Shown here: one piece after another, positions 25,992 to 35,065 of the stretch
Layout of the letters: each line of letters begins with the position of its first letter
How positions within the stretch are numbered: position 1 is the stretch's first letter
NCBI GenBank assembly: GCA_963696385.1
Contig: CAVOKF010000008.1
Location: 352,001-416,000, forward strand
Length of the DNA stretch: 64,000 nucleotides
Direction: 5' to 3'
From: an uncultured delta proteobacterium
GTDB taxonomy: Bacteria > Myxococcota_A > Polyangia > Polyangiales > Polyangiaceae
The notes under the pieces: model-generated
The model's database searches: none
Told to the model about the DNA's origin: nothing
The model's input: only the letters and a program-made list of their open reading frames with translations
Program-made: the position numbers and the translations under genes

Positions 25992-26162
25992 GCCGCCACC
26001 ATACCCGTCCAGGGTGCCGCCGCGCATTTCGCGCGCCGCCGGGTACGGGCTTGACGTGCTCGTGCGGAATTCATTAGCCTGCACGCGATGTCCGCGCTCA
26101 GCGGCGCGCCGAAAATACTAGTCTTTTCGCGCAAGTATCTACCAGGTGCCACCTCACGCGCG

Positions 26163-26975
26163 ATGCGGTCCCGAACCAACTCGAAAAAGAAGGCGTCCGG
26201 GCCCCCGCCCGAGACACCGAGAGTGTTCTCGATCGAGGAGCGCACGAGCTACCTCGAGGACCGGCTGAAGAGCGCCTCGTCGGAGTTTCAGGCGAAGTAC
26301 CGCGACGACTTGGACATGAGCTGGATCGCGCACGACAGCGCCCTCGAGGGGGCGGTTTACACGATTTCGGAGCTTCGCACGGCCATCGGCGGCATCGAAG
26401 CCGCTTCAAGTGCGGATTCAGCGATGCAGCCGGCCGTGGAGGAGATTCGCAAGCACCGAGAAGCCCTGAACTTCGTTCGGGAGCAAGCCACGCGCCGGCG
26501 AGCCCCCATCACGGTCGATGTCGTCAAACGCATTTATTGCGTGTTGCACCCGGAAGAGGGCGACCCCAAGACGGCCAAATACCGCAAGGATATCCCGCAG
26601 CATCGACTGTATTTTCACGAGTACGCTCCCCCCGACAAGATCGCCTACAAGCTGCGTCAGGTCATCGATTGGATGAACGATCCGGAGTCGCGGAGAACGC
26701 GGACTCCGGTCCGCCTGGCGGCGCGGGCGCACTACGACATCATCCGCATATTTCCGTTTGCCACCGACAGCGGCAAAGTCGCCCGGCTCGTCATGAACCT
26801 CCTACTTTTACGCAGCGGATATCCGCCGGCCATCATTCATTCGACCGAGCGGCAGCGCTATTACGAAGCGCTCAAGGGCTCGAGCACGACGATGCATACG
26901 ATCGTGCAGGACGCGATCGAAAACAGCCTGGCTTCCATCGAGAAGCTGCTCGATGCCTACGACGGCAAAGGGTAA
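26163..26975 (+). CDS. Fic-domain protein with a degenerate active site
   Basis: DSALEG inhibitory-helix motif, AHYDIIRIFPFATDSGKVARL in place of HPFxDGNGRxxR, GYPPAII..ERQRYYEAL. Confidence 0.85.
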   Translation: MRSRTNSKKKASGPPPETPRVFSIEERTSYLEDRLKSASSEFQAKYRDDLDMSWIAHDSALEGAVYTISELRTAIGGIEAASSADSAMQPAVEEIRKHREALNFVREQATRRRAPITVDVVKRIYCVLHPEEGDPKTAKYRKDIPQHRLYFHEYAPPDKIAYKLRQVIDWMNDPESRRTRTPVRLAARAHYDIIRIFPFATDSGKVARLVMNLLLLRSGYPPAIIHSTERQRYYEALKGSSTTMHTIVQDAIENSLASIEKLLDAYDGKG

Positions 26976-27058: not shown

Positions 27059-27844
27059 ATGCTCGCCAAGCGCGTCATTCCGTGCCTCGATGTGCGGGAA
27101 GGACGTGTCGTCAAGGGAGTTCGGTTCGTCGGACTGAGGGACGCGGGCGATCCGGTGGAATGTGCGCGGCGCTACGATGCGGAGGGTGCCGACGAGATCA
27201 CATTTCTCGACATTACCGCTTCGCACGAGGGACGCGGAACGCTGCTCGAGGTGGTCGCTCGGACCGCAGACGCCATTTTTGTTCCTCTGACGGTCGGAGG
27301 CGGGGTGCGGTCCGCCGACGACGTCCGCGCGCTGCTCGCGGCCGGCGCCGACAAGGTGAGCATCAACACCGCCGCCGTGACGACACCGGACATCGTGCGC
27401 AGGTGCAGCGACTCGTGGGGTTCGCAGGCGATCGTCGCCGCCATCGATGCGAAACGGCGCCCGCGGGGCGACGGCTGGGAGGTCTTCATCCACGGCGGTC
27501 GCACGGCCTCCGGTCTGGACGCCGTCGGTTGGGCGACGGAACTGGCGAGGCTCGGGGCCGGAGAGATTCTGCTCACGAGCATGGATCGGGACGGGACCCT
27601 GTCGGGTTACGACATCGAGCTGACACGGGCCGTATCCGACGCGATTTCCATTCCCGTCATCGCGAGCGGCGGAGTGGGTTCGCCTGAACACCTGATTTCG
27701 GGCCTCATCGATGGGCACGCGAGCGCCGTGCTCGCGGCGAGCCTATTTCACGACGGCACCTGTTCGATCCTGCAGGCCAAACGCATGCTGTCGGACGCCG
27801 GCGTTCCGGTCCGCCTGACGGATGCCGCGGAGCCGGCCCGATGA
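27059..27844 (+). CDS. hisF: Imidazole glycerol phosphate synthase, cyclase subunit
   Basis: [37 protein letters not shown]. Confidence 0.97.
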
Positions 27845-29514
27845 ACAACGGCGGAGGAGCGATCGACTCGTCGGTGACGCTCGACGAGGTCTTCGCCGTG
27901 CTGGGCGCCAAGCGGGTGCCGCTCGCTCCCGAACTCGCCGGGTATCTCGTGCTCGAGGTCGCCGAGCATGCGGACCCGAGCGGCGGCGACGTCGACCCGA
28001 AGAGTGTCTTCGTCGGCGAGGAGGGCACCGTCGCGCTGGTCAAGCCGAAACGGAGCGCCACGACTGGAGACGCGGAAGCCTCGGTTCGCGCCATGCTCGC
28101 GCGCTTGCTCGACGTGAGCGGGTCGCAAACACCGGCGCTCGCCGCCGCCAGCAAGAGGAAAAGCGGCGTGGGGCTGCCGGCACTGGCGGAAGAGCTCGAG
28201 ACCGCGTTGGTGCCGGTCAACCGCGCAGCGGGCCGGCGAGCACTCGCTCGCCTGGCGCGCGAAGTGCGCAGAGTGACTCTCGGCGTAGGTCGCAATGCCC
28301 TTCCCTCGTCGAGCGACGCCGCCGCCTCCTCGCGGCGACCCGTGGCTTCGTCCGCCGCCACGGCCGAGGGCACGCCGTTGCCGCCCCGCGCGACGCCGGC
28401 GAACCTCTTGCCGGAAGAAGAGGCGACCACCACGCGACGGCCCATGCCGGGCGAGCTCCTCAACCGGACGATCCCGGCGGAAGGCGCCGATCGGCAGACC
28501 CAACGAGCGGAGTCGTCGTCACCCTCGGATCAATCGCCGGACAACGAGGTCGATTTGCTCATCGAGCAGTTCGGCGGATCGTCGGACGGGGTTCAGGCGC
28601 ATGCCCCGGCCCTCAAGGCGATGGCGGGGCTCGAGCCGACTCCCCCTCCTCCAGTAGTGCCGTTTTCCGCCCCCGCCAATGGCCAGCACGCGATGGGCGA
28701 GATCGATTCGCTTCTCGCGGCGGGCGCGGCGGGCGCCGAACCACGGCCCTCGCCCGCCAACGATCGCCACCTGACCACGCAGCCATCCCAGCTGCGGCGC
28801 CAACGACCCTCGTCGCCGACGGTCGCCCGTCTCGAGCGCAAGCCTGCATCCGCATGGATTCCGGTCGTCGCGATCGTCGCCCTGGGCGCAGGCTCTTTTG
28901 CCGCGTACAAGATCCGACCCAGTCTTTCGGCCAAGGCGCCGTCGGAGCACGCGCCCCCTTCAACGGCCGCGCTCGCGGTTCAGTCGCCACCTGCCTGTCG
29001 TGGGACGCTGATCCTCTCGAACGTGCCGCCGCGTGCCGAAGTGCTCCTGCGCGAAGGACAGGCACCGGTCGACGTCGACAAGATGCCCGTCGGCGCACGC
29101 CTCGAGTTCGTTGCGACGGCCGAGGGATACGCGCCGAAACGGGTGGTCGTGCCGAGCGGGGCGATCTGGGACACCGGCGCGGACGGCAAGCCTCGTTTCG
29201 AATCCGCCGTGCAGCTCGACAAAGCGCCCAAAACGGGCGCCGATCCGTGGCCCGCCGGAGAGCCGGGAAGCGAAGTGGGAGGGCAAGGTCCACCCGGCAC
29301 CGTGCACGTCGTGGCCACTCCGCGCGGCGCCGAGATCTGGATGCTGGCCGGGCTGGGGCCCGAGGCTCGCATCGAGCAACTGCGCTGCGACCGCGATCTC
29401 GACGTACTCGTCGCTGGACCGACGACGCTCCGAAAGAGGATGCACGTGCCCGCGCGAGACTTTCGACGCGAGACTCCTTCCGGACCCATGGTCTTACGCG
29501 TCAACGTGCCCTAG
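27841..29514 (+). CDS. Bitopic protein: kinase C-lobe-like remnant, low-complexity linker, TM, PEGA-like domains
   Basis: [57 protein letters not shown] and [13 protein letters not shown]-like starts. Confidence 0.6.
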
Positions 29515-29891
29515 CGCGCCCCGCCCGCCTCGCGCCCAAGCGCCTCGAGCTCCTTCAGAAGCGCGGTTGGACTGAAGGGCTTCGTGTAGTACGCCGTCGC
29601 GCCCACGTCGGCCGCCTGCCGCTTCGATGCGTCGTCGGTCAACGCGCTGATGACGATGATCGGCACCAAACGCGTGCCCTGTGCGGCACGAAGCTTGCGG
29701 CAAACGTCGAAGCCGTCGAAGCTTCCGGGCAAGTGAAGGTCCAGCAGGATCGCATCCGGGGGATGGGCGAGCGCCGCGTCGATGCCCTTTGCGCCGTTCG
29801 GAACGGCCTCCACGTGATGTCCACGCGCGGCGACGAGCGTCTCGATCATGTGTCGAATGGAGTCGGAATCCTCGACGATCAGAATTCTCAT
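29511..29891 (-). CDS. Single-domain response regulator (receiver)
   Basis: RILIVEDS, LLDLHLPG..DG, VISA, KPF are all intact. Confidence 0.92.
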   Translation of the reverse strand: MRILIVEDSDSIRHMIETLVAARGHHVEAVPNGAKGIDAALAHPPDAILLDLHLPGSFDGFDVCRKLRAAQGTRLVPIIVISALTDDASKRQAADVGATAYYTKPFSPTALLKELEALGREAGGAR

Positions 29892-29932
29892 CTCGTCGCC
29901 TCGAGACCGGGTCCAAAGGTTACACGACGCCC

Positions 29933-31369
29933 TCACACTGGAAAGGTCACCGTGACGCGGACTCCTCCGCCACTGCCACTATCGACCGGCGCATCGCCGA
30001 TGTCGAACACCGCGCCCTGGGCAGCGGCTATTTCGGCGGCGATGAAGAGCGACACGCTGCTCGGCCGACCGAACGTCCCGGGCTCGACTTTGAGGCCCAA
30101 CAAGGCGCCCCGCGCGCCGGCGGGAAGCGGAACCCCGGAGTCGTCCACCGTGACGCTCCAACCGAGCTCACCGTCGCGCGGATGGACGTCGACGGCGACG
30201 CGCGTTCCTCGGCGGGAGGCGGCGATGGCGTGAGACACGAGCTCGCGTACGAGCACCGCCGCGGCGCCCGGAGCGACATGCGCCATCCGGTTGGCGGCGG
30301 TTTCGGCCACCGCGTGGCGCACGCACACATCGACGGCCGCCCGCGCGGCGTGCCCTTCGAGCGCGTGCACCTCGCGTCGAACGATTTCCGGCAGGTCGAC
30401 GGGCCGCCGGTCCTCTGCCGGGTCGATTTCACCGACGCCGGCAAGTTCTGCAACGAAGTTCTGCACGGCCGACAGCTTTCGGCGAATCGCCTCGAGCTTC
30501 TCATCCAGGCCCGTACGCGCAACTGTCTCCAGGTCGGGCGAACTCTTCCGGGGAGAGACCGATGACCGAAGATCCGCGACGTCCCTGGCCACGGGAGAGA
30601 GCAACGCGCGCAGTGTGGCCGCCACTCCTCCCGAAAAGCGCGCGATGGCGCTGAACCAATCGGCCATCGGGACTGCTGCCGACGGCGGATAGGACGACGA
30701 CAGAGTTTCATCGCCCACCGTCCACACCGCCGCGAGTTCGCGAGCGTACGTCTCGCCCTGCTTTCGCGCCTCGTCGAGCTCCTTGCGCAAGCGGGCGACG
30801 TCATCGCGTGCCTCGACGCCCTCGGCCGGCAAACCGAGGACCGCCGTGCTGCCTTCGAGCTCGTAACGGCCGCCGTAGCGAATGGCCATTCGCGACAGCC
30901 AGGCGCGCTCGGCGTCGGCGGTCGCCGAACTATCCGGACCGAGCACGACACTGAGCACGACTTCATCTCGCTCGCGACGAAGGGCCACGTCGCTGCCGGT
31001 GCCGCTGCCGTGTCCGAGCACGACGTGAAGCATTCGCCGCAACTCGGCCTCGTCGCCGAACACCTCGGTGCCCCCGCCCGGTTCGATGGAGACGCGCGCT
31101 TCCGGTGCAACCTCCCAAACGAGCGACGCGAGATCGATCCGGCCGCGCCGGCCGCGAGCGTTCATCGGCTGAGAGTGCAGGCTCGACAGCATCTTCATCG
31201 TGTCGTCGAGCGCGGACAGCGTCGCATCGACTCCGCTCGAATCGACACCGGGCGGCGGTGGTGCCTGCGTCAGCGCCGAGACGCCCTTGCGAAGGCGCTC
31301 GGCGGCCCCCCGCGCCTCCTGCGTGAGCAGCCAGCCGAGCTCCTGGCGGGTGAGCCTACCCTTGGACAC
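29933..31369 (-). CDS. Tandem degenerate histidine-kinase-like protein (two HisKA/HATPase-like modules)
   Basis: IDLASLV...VFGDEAELRRML and VDLPEIV...LVRELVSHAI...VDDSG...VTVTFP; H-box positions read LTQEAR and VAATLR. Confidence 0.7.
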   Translation of the reverse strand: MSKGRLTRQELGWLLTQEARGAAERLRKGVSALTQAPPPPGVDSSGVDATLSALDDTMKMLSSLHSQPMNARGRRGRIDLASLVWEVAPEARVSIEPGGGTEVFGDEAELRRMLHVVLGHGSGTGSDVALRRERDEVVLSVVLGPDSSATADAERAWLSRMAIRYGGRYELEGSTAVLGLPAEGVEARDDVARLRKELDEARKQGETYARELAAVWTVGDETLSSSYPPSAAVPMADWFSAIARFSGGVAATLRALLSPVARDVADLRSSVSPRKSSPDLETVARTGLDEKLEAIRRKLSAVQNFVAELAGVGEIDPAEDRRPVDLPEIVRREVHALEGHAARAAVDVCVRHAVAETAANRMAHVAPGAAAVLVRELVSHAIAASRRGTRVAVDVHPRDGELGWSVTVDDSGVPLPAGARGALLGLKVEPGTFGRPSSVSLFIAAEIAAAQGAVFDIGDAPVDSGSGGGVRVTVTFPV

Positions 31370-31416
31370 GCCTAAGAGTGCCAGATGTCCGCTTGCCGGT
31401 CACGCGCGGCGGGGGA

Positions 31417-33233
31417 CTAGCCTTGCGCGGCTTTTTTTCTTCGTGGCGAATGGGTCAATCCGTCGGCCACCACCGCGCCGGTCGTCCACGCACGCTCGGC
31501 GCCGAGCGCCAGCCATGTCAGCAGGATTTTGGCCTTTCCGACGGCCACCGGGATCGGTTTGCGCTCCGGCCAATGGGAAGGAGCGGCAAGAGCGATGGCG
31601 GTTTGACCTTGGATTTCGTCGAGCCCGGCCCCTTCCAGCCGAATCGCCGCGATGCCGGCCGCACTGAAAAGCGCGACGAGCCCGCACGGGATGTAGGGCG
31701 CGAGAACGGCGCGCACCGACGGGGCGATGTCCTGGGCTCGGCACGACATTTCGCGGACTTCGTCGAGAGTCGAGCACACGACGGCCATCGCCGGGCACCC
31801 GCTCGTGCGCGCCTCGTCGATCTGGAACCAACGGGCACACTCGACGAGGTCCAACGTCCGCGCCGTCGTCCATGTGGCCGCGGCTGGCGGGCCGAAGCTT
31901 GCGCCACGCAAGACAACCGGTGGATCGCCGCGATCGACCTTCCTCGCGACGAGCACGTCGTCCGTGGGCAGGGCGCGCGGGACCGTCACGCGCACCGGCC
32001 TCTTGAAGGCGCGCGGATCTCCGAGCTCACCCGTCGCCACGGCGTAGGCAATCGTCTCCGCCGACGCAACCACCGTTTGGCCCCTGCCGGGTATTCGGGG
32101 CTCCGGATCGCAGGTACGAAGAGCGACGCCGGAGGCGGGAGGCGGATACAATTCGCCCGAGAGCACGCGCGGGTCGGGCTCGACCAGGCGCCCGCCGGTC
32201 GCGATGAGATCGGTCAACGCTCCCGCGCCTGCGAGCACCTCGAGCATCTGTCGCGAAGGCGTCGCGATCAGGAAATCGAGGCGCTGGGGAACGCGTTTGC
32301 TCTTGAGGAGCATCGCGACGGCAAACAGATCGCGCAGCGTGACGCCGCTGTCGCCGCCGAGCAGGGCTTGGGCCACCGGCTTGCCGGCGAGATCGCGGAC
32401 CGCGCGCACTTGTCCGTTCGTATCGAGAAGCAAGGGGTCGACCGCCCCGAGGTCGATGTTGACGACCTCCTCGCAAGGGGCACCGGCGTCGGGCACGAGC
32501 GCTCGATAGGCCTTGGAACGTCGCTCGTCACGCAAGAAGACTTCGGTGCGCTCGTCGCTGACGAAGAGACACGCCGCAGCCCCAACCTGCGCGGCCAGTC
32601 CGGCCATGACGCTGCGCTCCGAAACCGAGAGAAGCCGCGCACTCGGACCGCCGAATTCGACGATCACCGGTGCGCTTTGCGCGTCCTCGACGCGGCGCAC
32701 CACGTCGCTCAAGCCACGGCGCAAAAGCTCGAGGGCGACGTCGCGCGCGCAGACGAAAGGCCGCAGTCGCCCCCCAAGCAGCACTTGGATGCTCACCGGA
32801 CGCCGGATGATCACGCGCCCGGTCGCGAGTGCGCGTCCGAGCGAAGCCGTCGGCACGACGAGCGAGAGCATCCCCACGCCTCCGACACCCGCGAGGCGTG
32901 GCTCGTCGGTCAAACACAGGCGGGCCGGGCTTGCAAAGCGCTCCAGGTGGACGGGCGCGGCGAACCCCACGCCGGCCTTGGCGAACAGCAATCCATGCGC
33001 GAGCATTTCTCCGGCCGCCGATCGGACGTCGTCATCACCGTCGCTCGGCGTCATGCATCGGCCGTCGTAGGCAATGGCCACTTCGGCGCGCGTCTTCTTC
33101 AGGCCCGCCGCGAGTCCATCGGCATACGCACGAACGGGCGAGCGCGCCAGCACGATCTGGTCCACCTGAACCTCGATCGAGTCGCCCGAAAGCGCGGCCT
33201 CGCCCGATCGCGCGGCGAGGATTTTTGGGCCAT
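31417..33233 (-). CDS. Aconitase-family homologue lacking Fe-S ligands and catalytic residues; 1-nt frameshift near 33224
   Basis: VHLERF, GRLRPFVCARDVALELLRR, LSVSERS, FVSDE, IDLGAVDP, ASAETIAYAVATGELGDPR; adding one A restores MAQKILAARSG...IEVQVDQ. Confidence 0.8.
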
Positions 33234-33356
33234 GGTGCGGGGTGGATCCCCGGCTCGTGCGCGCATGGTCGGATGGCTCTCGCCCACGGGGGCGCGGAGC
33301 GCGGCAAGGTAAACCGTCCGAGCTTTGTTGTCACGCGCCCGGGCGGCTGCCCCCCG

Positions 33357-33481
33357 TCCCGGCGCGTCCCGGCGGCGGTCCCGGCGCGCCCGGCGCGCCC
33401 GGCGCGAAGACGGCCGGCAACGGCGAACCGCGACGGCCGGCAACGGCGAACCGCGACGGCCGGCAACGGCGAACCGCGACG
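33357..33481. repeat. Tandem repeats: about 5 x CCCGGCGCG-like units, then 3 x 23-bp GACGGCCGGCAACGGCGAACCGC
   Basis: Exact 23-bp units at 33409, 33432 and 33455 with no spacers. Confidence 0.9.
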
Positions 33482-33523
33482 CATGGACACGCCGCTCTTG
33501 GCCGCGCTACTCTCGGGGAAATC

Positions 33524-33883
33524 ATGTTCCGCGATACGCTCCGCGATATCGTCGACGAGACCGAGGGCGGCGTCGCCGGCCTGGTCATGGATTCCGAGGG
33601 GATTGCGCTCGAAACGTACGCTCGCGACGGCGCTCCGTTCGATATCACGACGATCGGCATCGAGTTCGGAGTCGTCCTCGGATCCATCAAGCGGGCCGCC
33701 GACTCGCTCGACGCGGGCAGGACGCACGAAGTCGCCATCGCGACCGACAAGATGATTGCGCTCATTCGCACGCTCGGCGACACCTACTTTCTCGCGGTCG
33801 CGATGCGCCCGGACGGCAACATCGGCAAGGGACGCTTTTTGATGCGGACCGCCGTCCCCAAGCTCGTAGGCGAGCTCGGGTGA
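33524..33883 (+). CDS. mglC: Roadblock/LC7 protein, MglC-like (MglB paralogue)
   Basis: FRDTLRDIV...VMDSEGI...YFLAVAMRPDGNIGKGRFLMR resembles myxobacterial MglC as I recall it; upstream of aroQ-accBC. Confidence 0.7.
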   Translation: MFRDTLRDIVDETEGGVAGLVMDSEGIALETYARDGAPFDITTIGIEFGVVLGSIKRAADSLDAGRTHEVAIATDKMIALIRTLGDTYFLAVAMRPDGNIGKGRFLMRTAVPKLVGELG

Positions 33884-34386
33884 GTCCGCGTCCGAGCGAC
33901 GAACCCGCCGGCGCCGCGACGCGCATCATTTGCATCTCAGGCCCCAACCTTCAGTTGCTCGGAACGCGCGAGCCGGACGTGTACGGTCGAGAGTCGCTCG
34001 CCGAGATCCATTCGCGGCTCGCGGCCCGTGCTCGCGCGATCGGTGTCGAGATCGACGCGAGGCAGACCAATCACGAGGGCACGATCGTCGATTGGATCGG
34101 CGACGCGGCGAAGCAAGGTTTTGCCGGCATTCTGATCAACCCCGGAGCGTATACGCACACGTCGATCGCGACCCTGGACGCGATCCGCGCCAGCGGACTG
34201 CCTTGCATCGAGGTCCATCTGTCCAATCCCGATGCACGCGAAGCATTTCGCCGCCGGTCCTGGATCGCTCGCGCAGCCGTCGGGCGAGTCGCCGGATTCG
34301 GAGGGGACAGCTACGAGCTCGCCCTCGAGGGGCTCGCGCGTCTGCTCGCACGACGCAAGACGTCGGGCGGCGATGCGCCGCGCTGA
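33880..34386 (+). CDS. aroQ: Type II 3-dehydroquinate dehydratase
   Basis: GPNLQLLGTREPDVYG, NHEG, INPGAYTHTS, EVHLSN..REAFR. Confidence 0.95.
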   Translation: MSPRPSDEPAGAATRIICISGPNLQLLGTREPDVYGRESLAEIHSRLAARARAIGVEIDARQTNHEGTIVDWIGDAAKQGFAGILINPGAYTHTSIATLDAIRASGLPCIEVHLSNPDAREAFRRRSWIARAAVGRVAGFGGDSYELALEGLARLLARRKTSGGDAPR

Positions 34387-34510
34387 GGGGCGCTCTACCA
34401 AGGGACCCATCGCGCCGACGGATACAGGGCCAAAGCCGGGTATGAGCGCGGGCGTAAGCCGCTTCCCAGCGAGGGGGCTTCCGGCCTAAGGTGCCGGAGG
34501 CCGAGAAGAC

Positions 34511-34972
34511 ATGAGTTTCGATCTGGATCAGTTGAGTGCACTTTTCGATCTTCTGACCGCCAAGGACATCGCCGAGTTCGAGCACGAGGAAGGCGGCGTC
34601 CGCATTCGCGTCGCACGCGCGACCAGCACGGACCCCACCGGCGCGCTTGCCGCGACGGCTTCGATTCCACACGCGCCGTCTTCCTCCTTGCGTCTCGCCA
34701 AGGAGGACTCGGATGACGCGGCGGGCGGCGATTGGGTCGACGTGACGAGCCCGTTCGTGGGCAGCTTCTACCGAGCGCCTTCACCGGATACACCCCCGTT
34801 CGTCGAGGTCGGGTCGGTCGTGCGTCCGGGCCAAACCCTTTGCATCATCGAAGCGATGAAGCTGATGAACGAAATCGAGTCGGAATGCGCCGGGACCGTC
34901 ACGGAGGTATTTGCGCAAAACGGCAAGAGTGTGGAGTACGGACAGAAGCTCTTTCGCATCAAGAAAGCTTGA
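34511..34972 (+). CDS. accB: Acetyl-CoA carboxylase biotin carboxyl carrier protein
   Basis: SPFVGSFYRAPSP, IIEAMKLMNEI. Confidence 0.96.
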   Translation: MSFDLDQLSALFDLLTAKDIAEFEHEEGGVRIRVARATSTDPTGALAATASIPHAPSSSLRLAKEDSDDAAGGDWVDVTSPFVGSFYRAPSPDTPPFVEVGSVVRPGQTLCIIEAMKLMNEIESECAGTVTEVFAQNGKSVEYGQKLFRIKKA

Positions 34973-35065
34973 AGGATCAGGGCGTTCGCACGGGTCCCGA
35001 GCCTTGCTCCCTCGCTCCGACGCGAGTCATGCCCCAAGGGCCCCCGACCCACCCCACGTGCGACC

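Follow-up and report, generated by a model that had tools for sequence, protein, structure and literature searches.

A strongly conserved, lineage-specific pseudo-aconitase of the Polyangiaceae, probably kept for a non-aconitase binding role

The gene at 31417..33266 on the minus strand of the window (the whole stretch of 64,000 nucleotides that was analysed) is a real, strongly conserved, lineage-specific pseudo-aconitase. Its product is modelled as a complete aconitase fold of the single-chain type, reduced in the swivel domain. The [4Fe-4S] cluster ligands and the catalytic motifs are replaced, and the protein probably serves a different, non-aconitase binding job.

Reading frame and fold

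The following features define the gene and its upstream region:
31417..33266, minus strand: pseudo-aconitase gene, about 616 amino acids from ATG 33266; the assembly is one base short
33234..33266, minus strand: N-terminal extension MRARAGDPPRT, conserved in the family and missing from intact single-chain aconitases
33222..33226, minus strand: homopolymer one base short by assembly error, five T against six in L001
33306..33334, minus strand: sigma70-like promoter candidate, GTGAC-N18-TACCTT in the window copy

On the minus strand, the assembly leaves open a frame of 582 codons that begins at GTG 33165 and reaches its stop at 31417. In the relatives the protein starts with MRARAGDPPRTM[APT]QK, and a frame of this kind was obtained in 75 of 80 loci; this conserved start sequence places the true start of the window gene at ATG 33266 (MRARAGDPPRT, then MAQK at 33233), which corrects the start at 33233 given by an earlier, sequence-only reading. 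Between this start and the long open frame lies a frameshift, which in the assembly falls after codon 14, in the homopolymer that is one base longer in L001, the closest relative of the window protein (95% amino-acid identity). The extra T is present in the assembled contigs of both DNA runs that span 33222-33226 (X1 and X9; the X4 and X17 contigs do not span these positions), so the frameshift is an assembly error and not, as had been considered, a real lesion that leaves no protein made. At 33035, where the window has T, the runs X1, X9 and X17 all have G, which may be another assembly error or a difference between strains. The X17 contig comes from an RNA run, is 95% alike and spans 32604-33207 of the gene; DNA carry-over is possible, and expression is at most hinted.

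The pattern TTGAC-N17-19-TAnnnT, drawn up by eye from the very sequences in which it was then counted, is found ahead of the gene in 40 of 74 loci (0.01 with shuffling); the window copy is one base short of the strict pattern. Short GC-rich tandem repeats lie between the divergent genes at about 33370-33480, with one more 9-base unit in X1 at 33379.

Domains 1-3 belong to the aconitase superfamily (the PF00330 fold) by both sequence and structure (Z 30-35). An HMM comparison suggested by the sequence-only reading succeeded in one half and failed in the other: the window protein scores 69.4 bits with PF00330 (cut-off 28.7, E 4e-19), whereas the PF00694 swivel domain was not detected in it by Pfam. 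In NCBIfam the top match is PRK07229 (NF005558), a single-chain aconitase, at 170.6 bits, far under its cut-off of 612, and TIGR01342 gives 161.2 bits against a cut-off of 719, so that the curated cut-offs of the active single-chain aconitase are not reached. Alignment to intact single-chain aconitases by hhalign gave a probability of 100 over 426 columns. An AlphaFold model of L001 (53 sequences, pLDDT 81, pTM 0.85; confidence below 50 for residues 99-105, in the former active-site loops) matches mitochondrial aconitase end to end in Foldseek (E 3e-31) and 1aco with Z 30.2 and rmsd 3.9 over 573 aligned residues, its top matches being aconitases along the whole length. The claim of a full-length aconitase homologue is upheld by this agreement and by the PF00330 score. 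The ESM Atlas returned aconitase-labelled clusters only and, with these set aside, no usable match. The swivel domain, seen by structure only, is predicted from a match of residues 465-600 of the model to LeuD 3h5h (VIA-align; Z 9.5, rmsd 3.9, 123 aligned):
31471..31876, minus strand: reduced LeuD-like swivel domain, about residues 465-600 with approximate boundaries, weakly conserved and absent from some members

Lost ligands, fixed replacements and selection

Aconitase-family chemistry needs its cluster ligands and catalytic residues. The register against intact single-chain aconitases was taken from MAFFT alignments and hhalign, with pig-aconitase residue numbers as presumed site labels, and places the following replacements in the window protein:
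33055..33069, minus strand: YDGRC replacing YIDHN, with loss of the Asp/His pair
32935..32964, minus strand: FAAPVHLERF replacing ICHQVHLERF (GICHQV becomes GFAAPV), His lost and scaffold kept
32893..32910, minus strand: TDEPRL replacing GSDSHT, with new invariant Asp121 and Arg124
32344..32358, minus strand: GGDSG replacing GSCTN (IGSCTN becomes LGGDSG), the first Fe-S Cys turned into invariant Asp306
32155..32181, minus strand: EPDPRVLSG replacing ENxCGxCIG, second and third Fe-S Cys lost, with invariant Asp365
32098..32118, minus strand: RTCDPEP replacing RTSNRNF (NRN becomes DPE), substrate-binding Asn/Arg lost

The window protein thus has none of the three [4Fe-4S] cysteine ligands (0/3), and the TTDHI...RSN insert and the GSSRE of the swivel domain are without counterpart in it. 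These substitutions align as the sequence-only reading had claimed, save that its register at CxxC was off by one residue: the two cysteines are replaced by P and L, and the invariant Asp stands just before the first of those positions.

Conservation of the replacements was followed in the best 120 of 1462 protein matches (65-95% identity) and in the 75 locus-derived frames, two partly overlapping sets. Every one of these 120 best matches and 75 frames is without Cys at the three ligand positions, without CxxC and without GSSRE, and the DH, CHQ, DSH and NRN motifs are replaced in both sets; the first catalytic His position still holds His in 12/120 and 12/75, its Asp partner in none. Asp121 (the position before DSH), Arg124 (the DSH His position), Asp306 (the first Cys position) and Asp365 (just ahead of the second Cys position) are found in 120/120 and 75/75, and Asp306 also in 43 of the 44 members of a deep set. 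Hence the substitutions are fixed across the family as anticipated, and the orthologues do not retain the three cysteines. Nor do other cysteines, such as the alternative set that binds the cluster in aconitase X, appear to take over the cluster site, with no Cys column at 88% in the 44-member deep set; at 95%, the 59 loci have two Cys columns. As judged from these alignments, the lost ligands and catalytic residues exclude aconitase chemistry.

In 15 pairs of sequences, some with a member in common, dN/dS (Nei-Gojobori script) lay between 0.008 and 0.097 for domains 1-3 and between 0.07 and 0.32 for the C-terminal part. The fraction of columns conserved at 95% or more in the same 59 loci was 206/443 for domains 1-3, 232/448 for AccC and 19/147 for the swivel region; domains 1-3 are conserved about as strongly as AccC. 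With substitutions fixed family-wide under strongly purifying selection, and with real frameshift, retained cysteines and substitute cysteines all failing to appear, the proposal of a repurposed rather than decaying protein holds.

A comparison of the deep set (44 members) with 29 intact-type enzymes yielded two groups of family-specific conserved positions. One, at the former active site, consists of Asp121, Arg124, Asp306 and Asp365; the other comprises basic motifs at 242-255, 320-325 and 422-442, together with the N-terminal extension. The basic motifs in the window are:
32503..32538, minus strand: FLRD[QE]RRSKA[HY]R, family-specific, at the end of domain 2
32287..32310, minus strand: LLKSKRVP, in domain 3
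31951..32022, minus strand: basic linker GDPRxFKRPVRVTVPRxLPTDDVL, family-specific; swivel-less members end just past it

Lys and Arg make up 39 of the 206 conserved columns (19%) against 25 of 232 (11%) in AccC (Fisher p 0.02), a single post-hoc comparison in GC-rich genomes. Of the 32 full-length members listed, all except two have an isoelectric point of 8.5-9.9; in 12 of 13 intact relatives it is 4.7-6.8. Domains 1-3 overall are close to neutral (net charge -6 to +7), and much of the total positive charge sits in the variable linker and tail.

Six members (G140, G195, P0137, P0139, P0142 and P0155) lack the swivel domain and end right after PRxLPTDDVL; the P0139 cluster holds five sequences of 446-448 amino acids and one fragment. 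With L001 as query, no swivel domain was found elsewhere in G140 or G195, either nearby or genome-wide, while the same query found it in G010. P0123, P0131, P0138 and P0144 also end early and may be frameshift artefacts. From the swivel-less members and the weak conservation of the swivel domain we infer that the functional core is made up of domains 1-3 and the proximal linker.

Distribution, origin and genomic neighbourhood

A scan of 401 genomes of the phylum gave close matches (E at most 1e-90) in the window's family alone, where 21 of 29 genomes besides G000, the window's own genome, have the gene; all 8 next-tier matches inspected below this set were intact-type enzymes. Searching 151 genomes of the order with a profile (one row of these tallies being the unpublished genome G479) brought in the sister family, 9/9, one of them a contig-end fragment. 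Other families of the order scored at most 186 bits, and the one such match inspected was an intact-type enzyme. Named carriers are Sorangium cellulosum So ce56, Minicystis rosea, Chondromyces apiculatus, Polyangium and Labilithrix; in databases the members are called 'aconitate hydratase' or 'aconitase family protein'. No copy of the gene turned up in 8 of the 29 family genomes (95-100% complete, 1.8-9.9 Mb), and in the single-contig genome G370 it is cleanly missing between the kinase-like gene and mglC; the gene is therefore not essential.

In quick trees the family forms one clade (SH-aLRT 100, stem 0.85-1.0), one of these trees having been built without rows covering less than 85% of domains 1-3 and without six frameshifted or fragmentary rows. 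These trees do not settle the exact sister lineage. The PVH and RD letters in common with a two-Cys GSSAN subfamily had hinted at an origin there, but this found no support: in the quick trees the two groups stand apart. Likewise, the intact sister-family aconitases that score highest against the profile group elsewhere in a quick tree. The GSSAN-for-GSCTN subfamily itself (L115, L116, L117, L166, L186 and L187) is myxobacterial and has two of the three Cys, with DSH and GSSRE intact. Three intact single-chain aconitases of the sister family (L168, L169 and L170) lie near an IscA/HesB-like gene (label by eye). AcnA and LeuC are intact in G000, which also has a permuted LeuD-LeuC enzyme; in the latter (L083; G000:C5, about 87700-89900) a LeuD-like part precedes the LeuC-like part and the motifs are intact.

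The neighbours in the window are as follows:
33524..33883, plus strand: mglC (roadblock fold), the divergent neighbour, matched to MglC of PDB 7ct3 (E 2e-21) and followed by aroQ, accB and accC
29933..31369, minus strand: kinase-like gene, the downstream neighbour in the same orientation; its product resembles a tandem DHp-CA histidine kinase, and both DHp helices lack His
29511..29936, minus strand: single-domain response regulator after the kinase-like gene (PF00072, E 2e-22)

On the upstream side, aroQ, accB and accC occur in 75, 70 and 69 of 80 loci, and a head-to-head arrangement with mglC (on MglC see the available part of PMC10329633) is found in 17 of 18 family genomes. In the sister family mglC was on another contig in all 7 genomes in which both were found (adjacency 0/7), and 145 of 151 genomes of the order have mglC; the linkage may be inertia. 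A constant downstream partner was sought and rejected, as the neighbours differ by clade: one clade has the kinase-like gene and the regulator, Sorangium-type loci have a convergent DUF4139-like gene, and other loci a glyoxalase-like gene (label by eye) near methylmalonyl-CoA mutase genes. An ABC-F-like ATPase (label by eye) lies upstream in the sister family. Rfam gave no match at E up to 1 in window 29000-35000.

The kinase-like protein is predicted to adopt a tandem DHp-CA histidine kinase fold, with degenerate ATP boxes and a strongly conserved first half. No His was found in either DHp helix in 39 aligned sequences, and it is a probable double pseudokinase. It was found only in the same two families (17/23 and 7/9), and its gene adjoins the pseudo-aconitase in 35 of 80 loci. 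Among 29 family genomes, 18 have both genes, 3 the aconitase only, 2 the kinase only and 6 neither, with a p of 0.004 that overstates the association because the genomes are related. Small genomes account for part of the co-loss, as does at least one apparent block deletion (G002). By a single control, orf557, whose N-terminal domain persists in 28 of 29 family genomes, the co-loss is not wholly general. Also in the window, 27841-29514 on the plus strand encodes a 557-residue protein without Pfam match, its N-terminal domain being present in 45 of 47 genomes searched, and 26088-26975 on the plus strand a Fic-domain protein that keeps its place next to hisF and recN in related loci.

Possible roles of a cluster-free aconitase fold

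IRP2 is a permanently non-catalytic member of the aconitase family, and Arg734 and Gln738 of CitB lie in domain 4. IRP1 residue numbers can in part be mapped, as we presume, onto motifs of the pseudo-aconitase. The Thr-Asn that follows the first Cys of IRP1 is not there: the family has GGD[STGA][GA], with Gly as the equivalent of Asn439. The Arg713/Arg780 pocket of domain 4 is likewise lacking, the segment with the first Arg being deleted and domain 4 missing in several members; the Arg in TLDEVR may match the Arg780 equivalent, in an uncertain register. According to the available parts of the respective reports, the RNA clamp of IRP1 uses Thr438/Asn439 and the domain-4 pocket between Arg713 and Arg780 (PMC3048577; PMC8466369), while RNA binding by S. 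aureus CitB needs Arg734/Gln738 (PMC11317140).

Because aconitase chemistry appears excluded and the RNA determinants of IRP1 and CitB are missing or dispensable, we favour, with moderate confidence, a pseudoenzyme that would act as a non-catalytic adaptor or regulator and bind a macromolecule through the new basic motifs of domains 1-3 and the linker. A single-chain (PRK07229-type) aconitase would have lost its cluster and catalytic residues once, in the ancestor common to Polyangiaceae and one sister family, and would then have been kept for a non-catalytic job. The invariant Asp121, Asp306 and Asp365, with Arg124, may fill and stabilise the empty cluster site; these acidic residues could equally form a metal or ligand site. 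The working surface would consist of MRARAGDPPR, LRDQRRSKAHR, LKSKRVP and FKRPVRVTVPR, which may bind a macromolecular partner, an acidic protein being more probable than RNA. The scaffold role mooted by the sequence-only reading fits the data.

The same reading had also raised RNA binding in the manner of IRP1 and CitB, and this part is weakened. A permanently apo clamp, with stem-loops lodged in the cleft that separates domains 1-3 from domain 4, would suit the basic character of most full-length members relative to intact enzymes and the RNA binding reported for apo-aconitases (in the available part of PMC11317140), but it is very unlikely given the Gly at the Asn439 equivalent, the deleted insert with the Arg713 equivalent, a domain 4 with only 19 of 147 columns conserved and absent from several members, an old cleft that has gained acidic residues, and a positive charge much of which falls in the variable linker and tail. 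The protein may still bind RNA by way of some other, new basic surface. That the protein is still an aconitase-family hydro-lyase with other ligands, as database names and the complete fold imply, is scarcely credible, since no conserved alternative set of cysteines was found, the catalytic Ser and His positions are lost, and intact paralogues are present. Equally little can be said for a decaying pseudogene or a gene silenced at its start, a reading that is largely refuted: the assembly frameshift after codon 14 and a few truncated or missing members point that way, but the missing base is present in X1 and X9, dN/dS is far below 1, and 75 of 80 loci have a frame from the conserved N-terminus.

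The fixed acidic residues at the old site invite another view, of a neo-enzyme or metal-binding protein that binds Mg, Mn or Fe and carries out a new, swivel-free reaction. The Asp in place of the first Cys, the invariance of Asp121 and Asp365 (120/120 of the best 120 of 1462 matches, and 75/75), the near-constant D/E at positions 122 and 387 and an enzyme-like conservation are consistent with it; yet it is unlikely, as Arg124, Arg312, Arg339 and Arg360 are equally conserved and could form salt bridges with the acids, the sole conserved His (107) also occurs in intact enzymes, the former active-site loops are of low confidence in the model, and no metabolic partner gene is constant nearby. Rather improbable, too, is a small-molecule sensor that feeds the adjacent His-less kinase and response regulator or tunes MglC or acetyl-CoA carboxylase. 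The head-to-head mglC, the aroQ-accB-accC genes in most loci, and the kinase-like protein sharing the same two families, with both genes in 18 of 29 family genomes, argue for such a link; against it, the Arg, His and Asn residues that bind carboxylates have been lost, mglC is nearly universal in the order and sits on another contig in the sister family, and the kinase-like gene is adjacent in fewer than half of the loci, its co-loss being due in part to small genomes and an apparent block deletion. A further, quite doubtful reading is a lineage-specific pseudoenzyme module of Sorangium-type myxobacteria, in which a dedicated, permanently cluster-free regulator of aconitase fold would work with the likewise dead tandem kinase. 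Transcribed divergently from the polarity gene mglC, the module would couple the metabolic state to motility or to lipid synthesis.

The favoured adaptor or regulator can be set beside several known systems. With the PRK07229/TIGR01342 single-chain group the pseudo-aconitase shares the domain order and, for myxobacterial members, 29-34% identity; unlike them, it has all ligands and motifs replaced and the swivel insert deleted, with the N-terminal extension and basic motifs as new elements. IRP1, IRP2, CitB and AcnA resemble it as cluster-free aconitase folds with a non-catalytic role, and IRP1 and IRP2 structures match the L001 model, but they belong to the larger AcnA group; as far as the available sources go, IRP1-type proteins bind RNA by domain 4 and residues after the first Cys, determinants that the pseudo-aconitase does not have. 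Aspergillus AcoB is likewise a transcribed aconitase paralogue without detectable activity; in the available part of PMC3556520 it keeps virtually all catalytic residues, whereas in the pseudo-aconitase all are replaced and new ones fixed. Archaeal LeuC/homoaconitase large subunits (MJ0499, MJ1003) also have domains 1-3 as a separate unit, and the swivel-less members resemble the large subunit alone (domains 1-3 against 4kp2: Z 34.6, rmsd 3.2, 390 aligned; against AcnX 7cnp: Z 13.6, rmsd 5.4, 342 aligned). Unlike these members, the archaeal large subunits and aconitase X are cluster enzymes with a small subunit; no swivel partner gene was found for G140 and G195 with the L001 query.

We found no description of this family in the main texts of the open-access literature, and the available part of PMC4719450 makes no mention of the locus terms. 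Known non-catalytic roles of aconitases are a switch of the active enzyme (IRP1, CitB) or, in animals, IRP2. What is new is a bacterial family from another branch, in which catalysis is wholly given up, new residues are fixed and the swivel domain can be dropped; from this family one can expect to learn what domains 1-3 do independently of iron and of the IRP clamp. The genes are misannotated as aconitate hydratase, and the carriers include cultured strains (So ce56, Minicystis rosea, Chondromyces apiculatus, Polyangium), which makes the proposed role directly testable.

Outside the clade, single-chain aconitase homologues without Cys ligands were also observed (P0195, P0198, P0211, P0225, P0218, P0219 and P0229, the last from Sumerlaeota), and loss of the cluster seems to recur in the single-chain branch.
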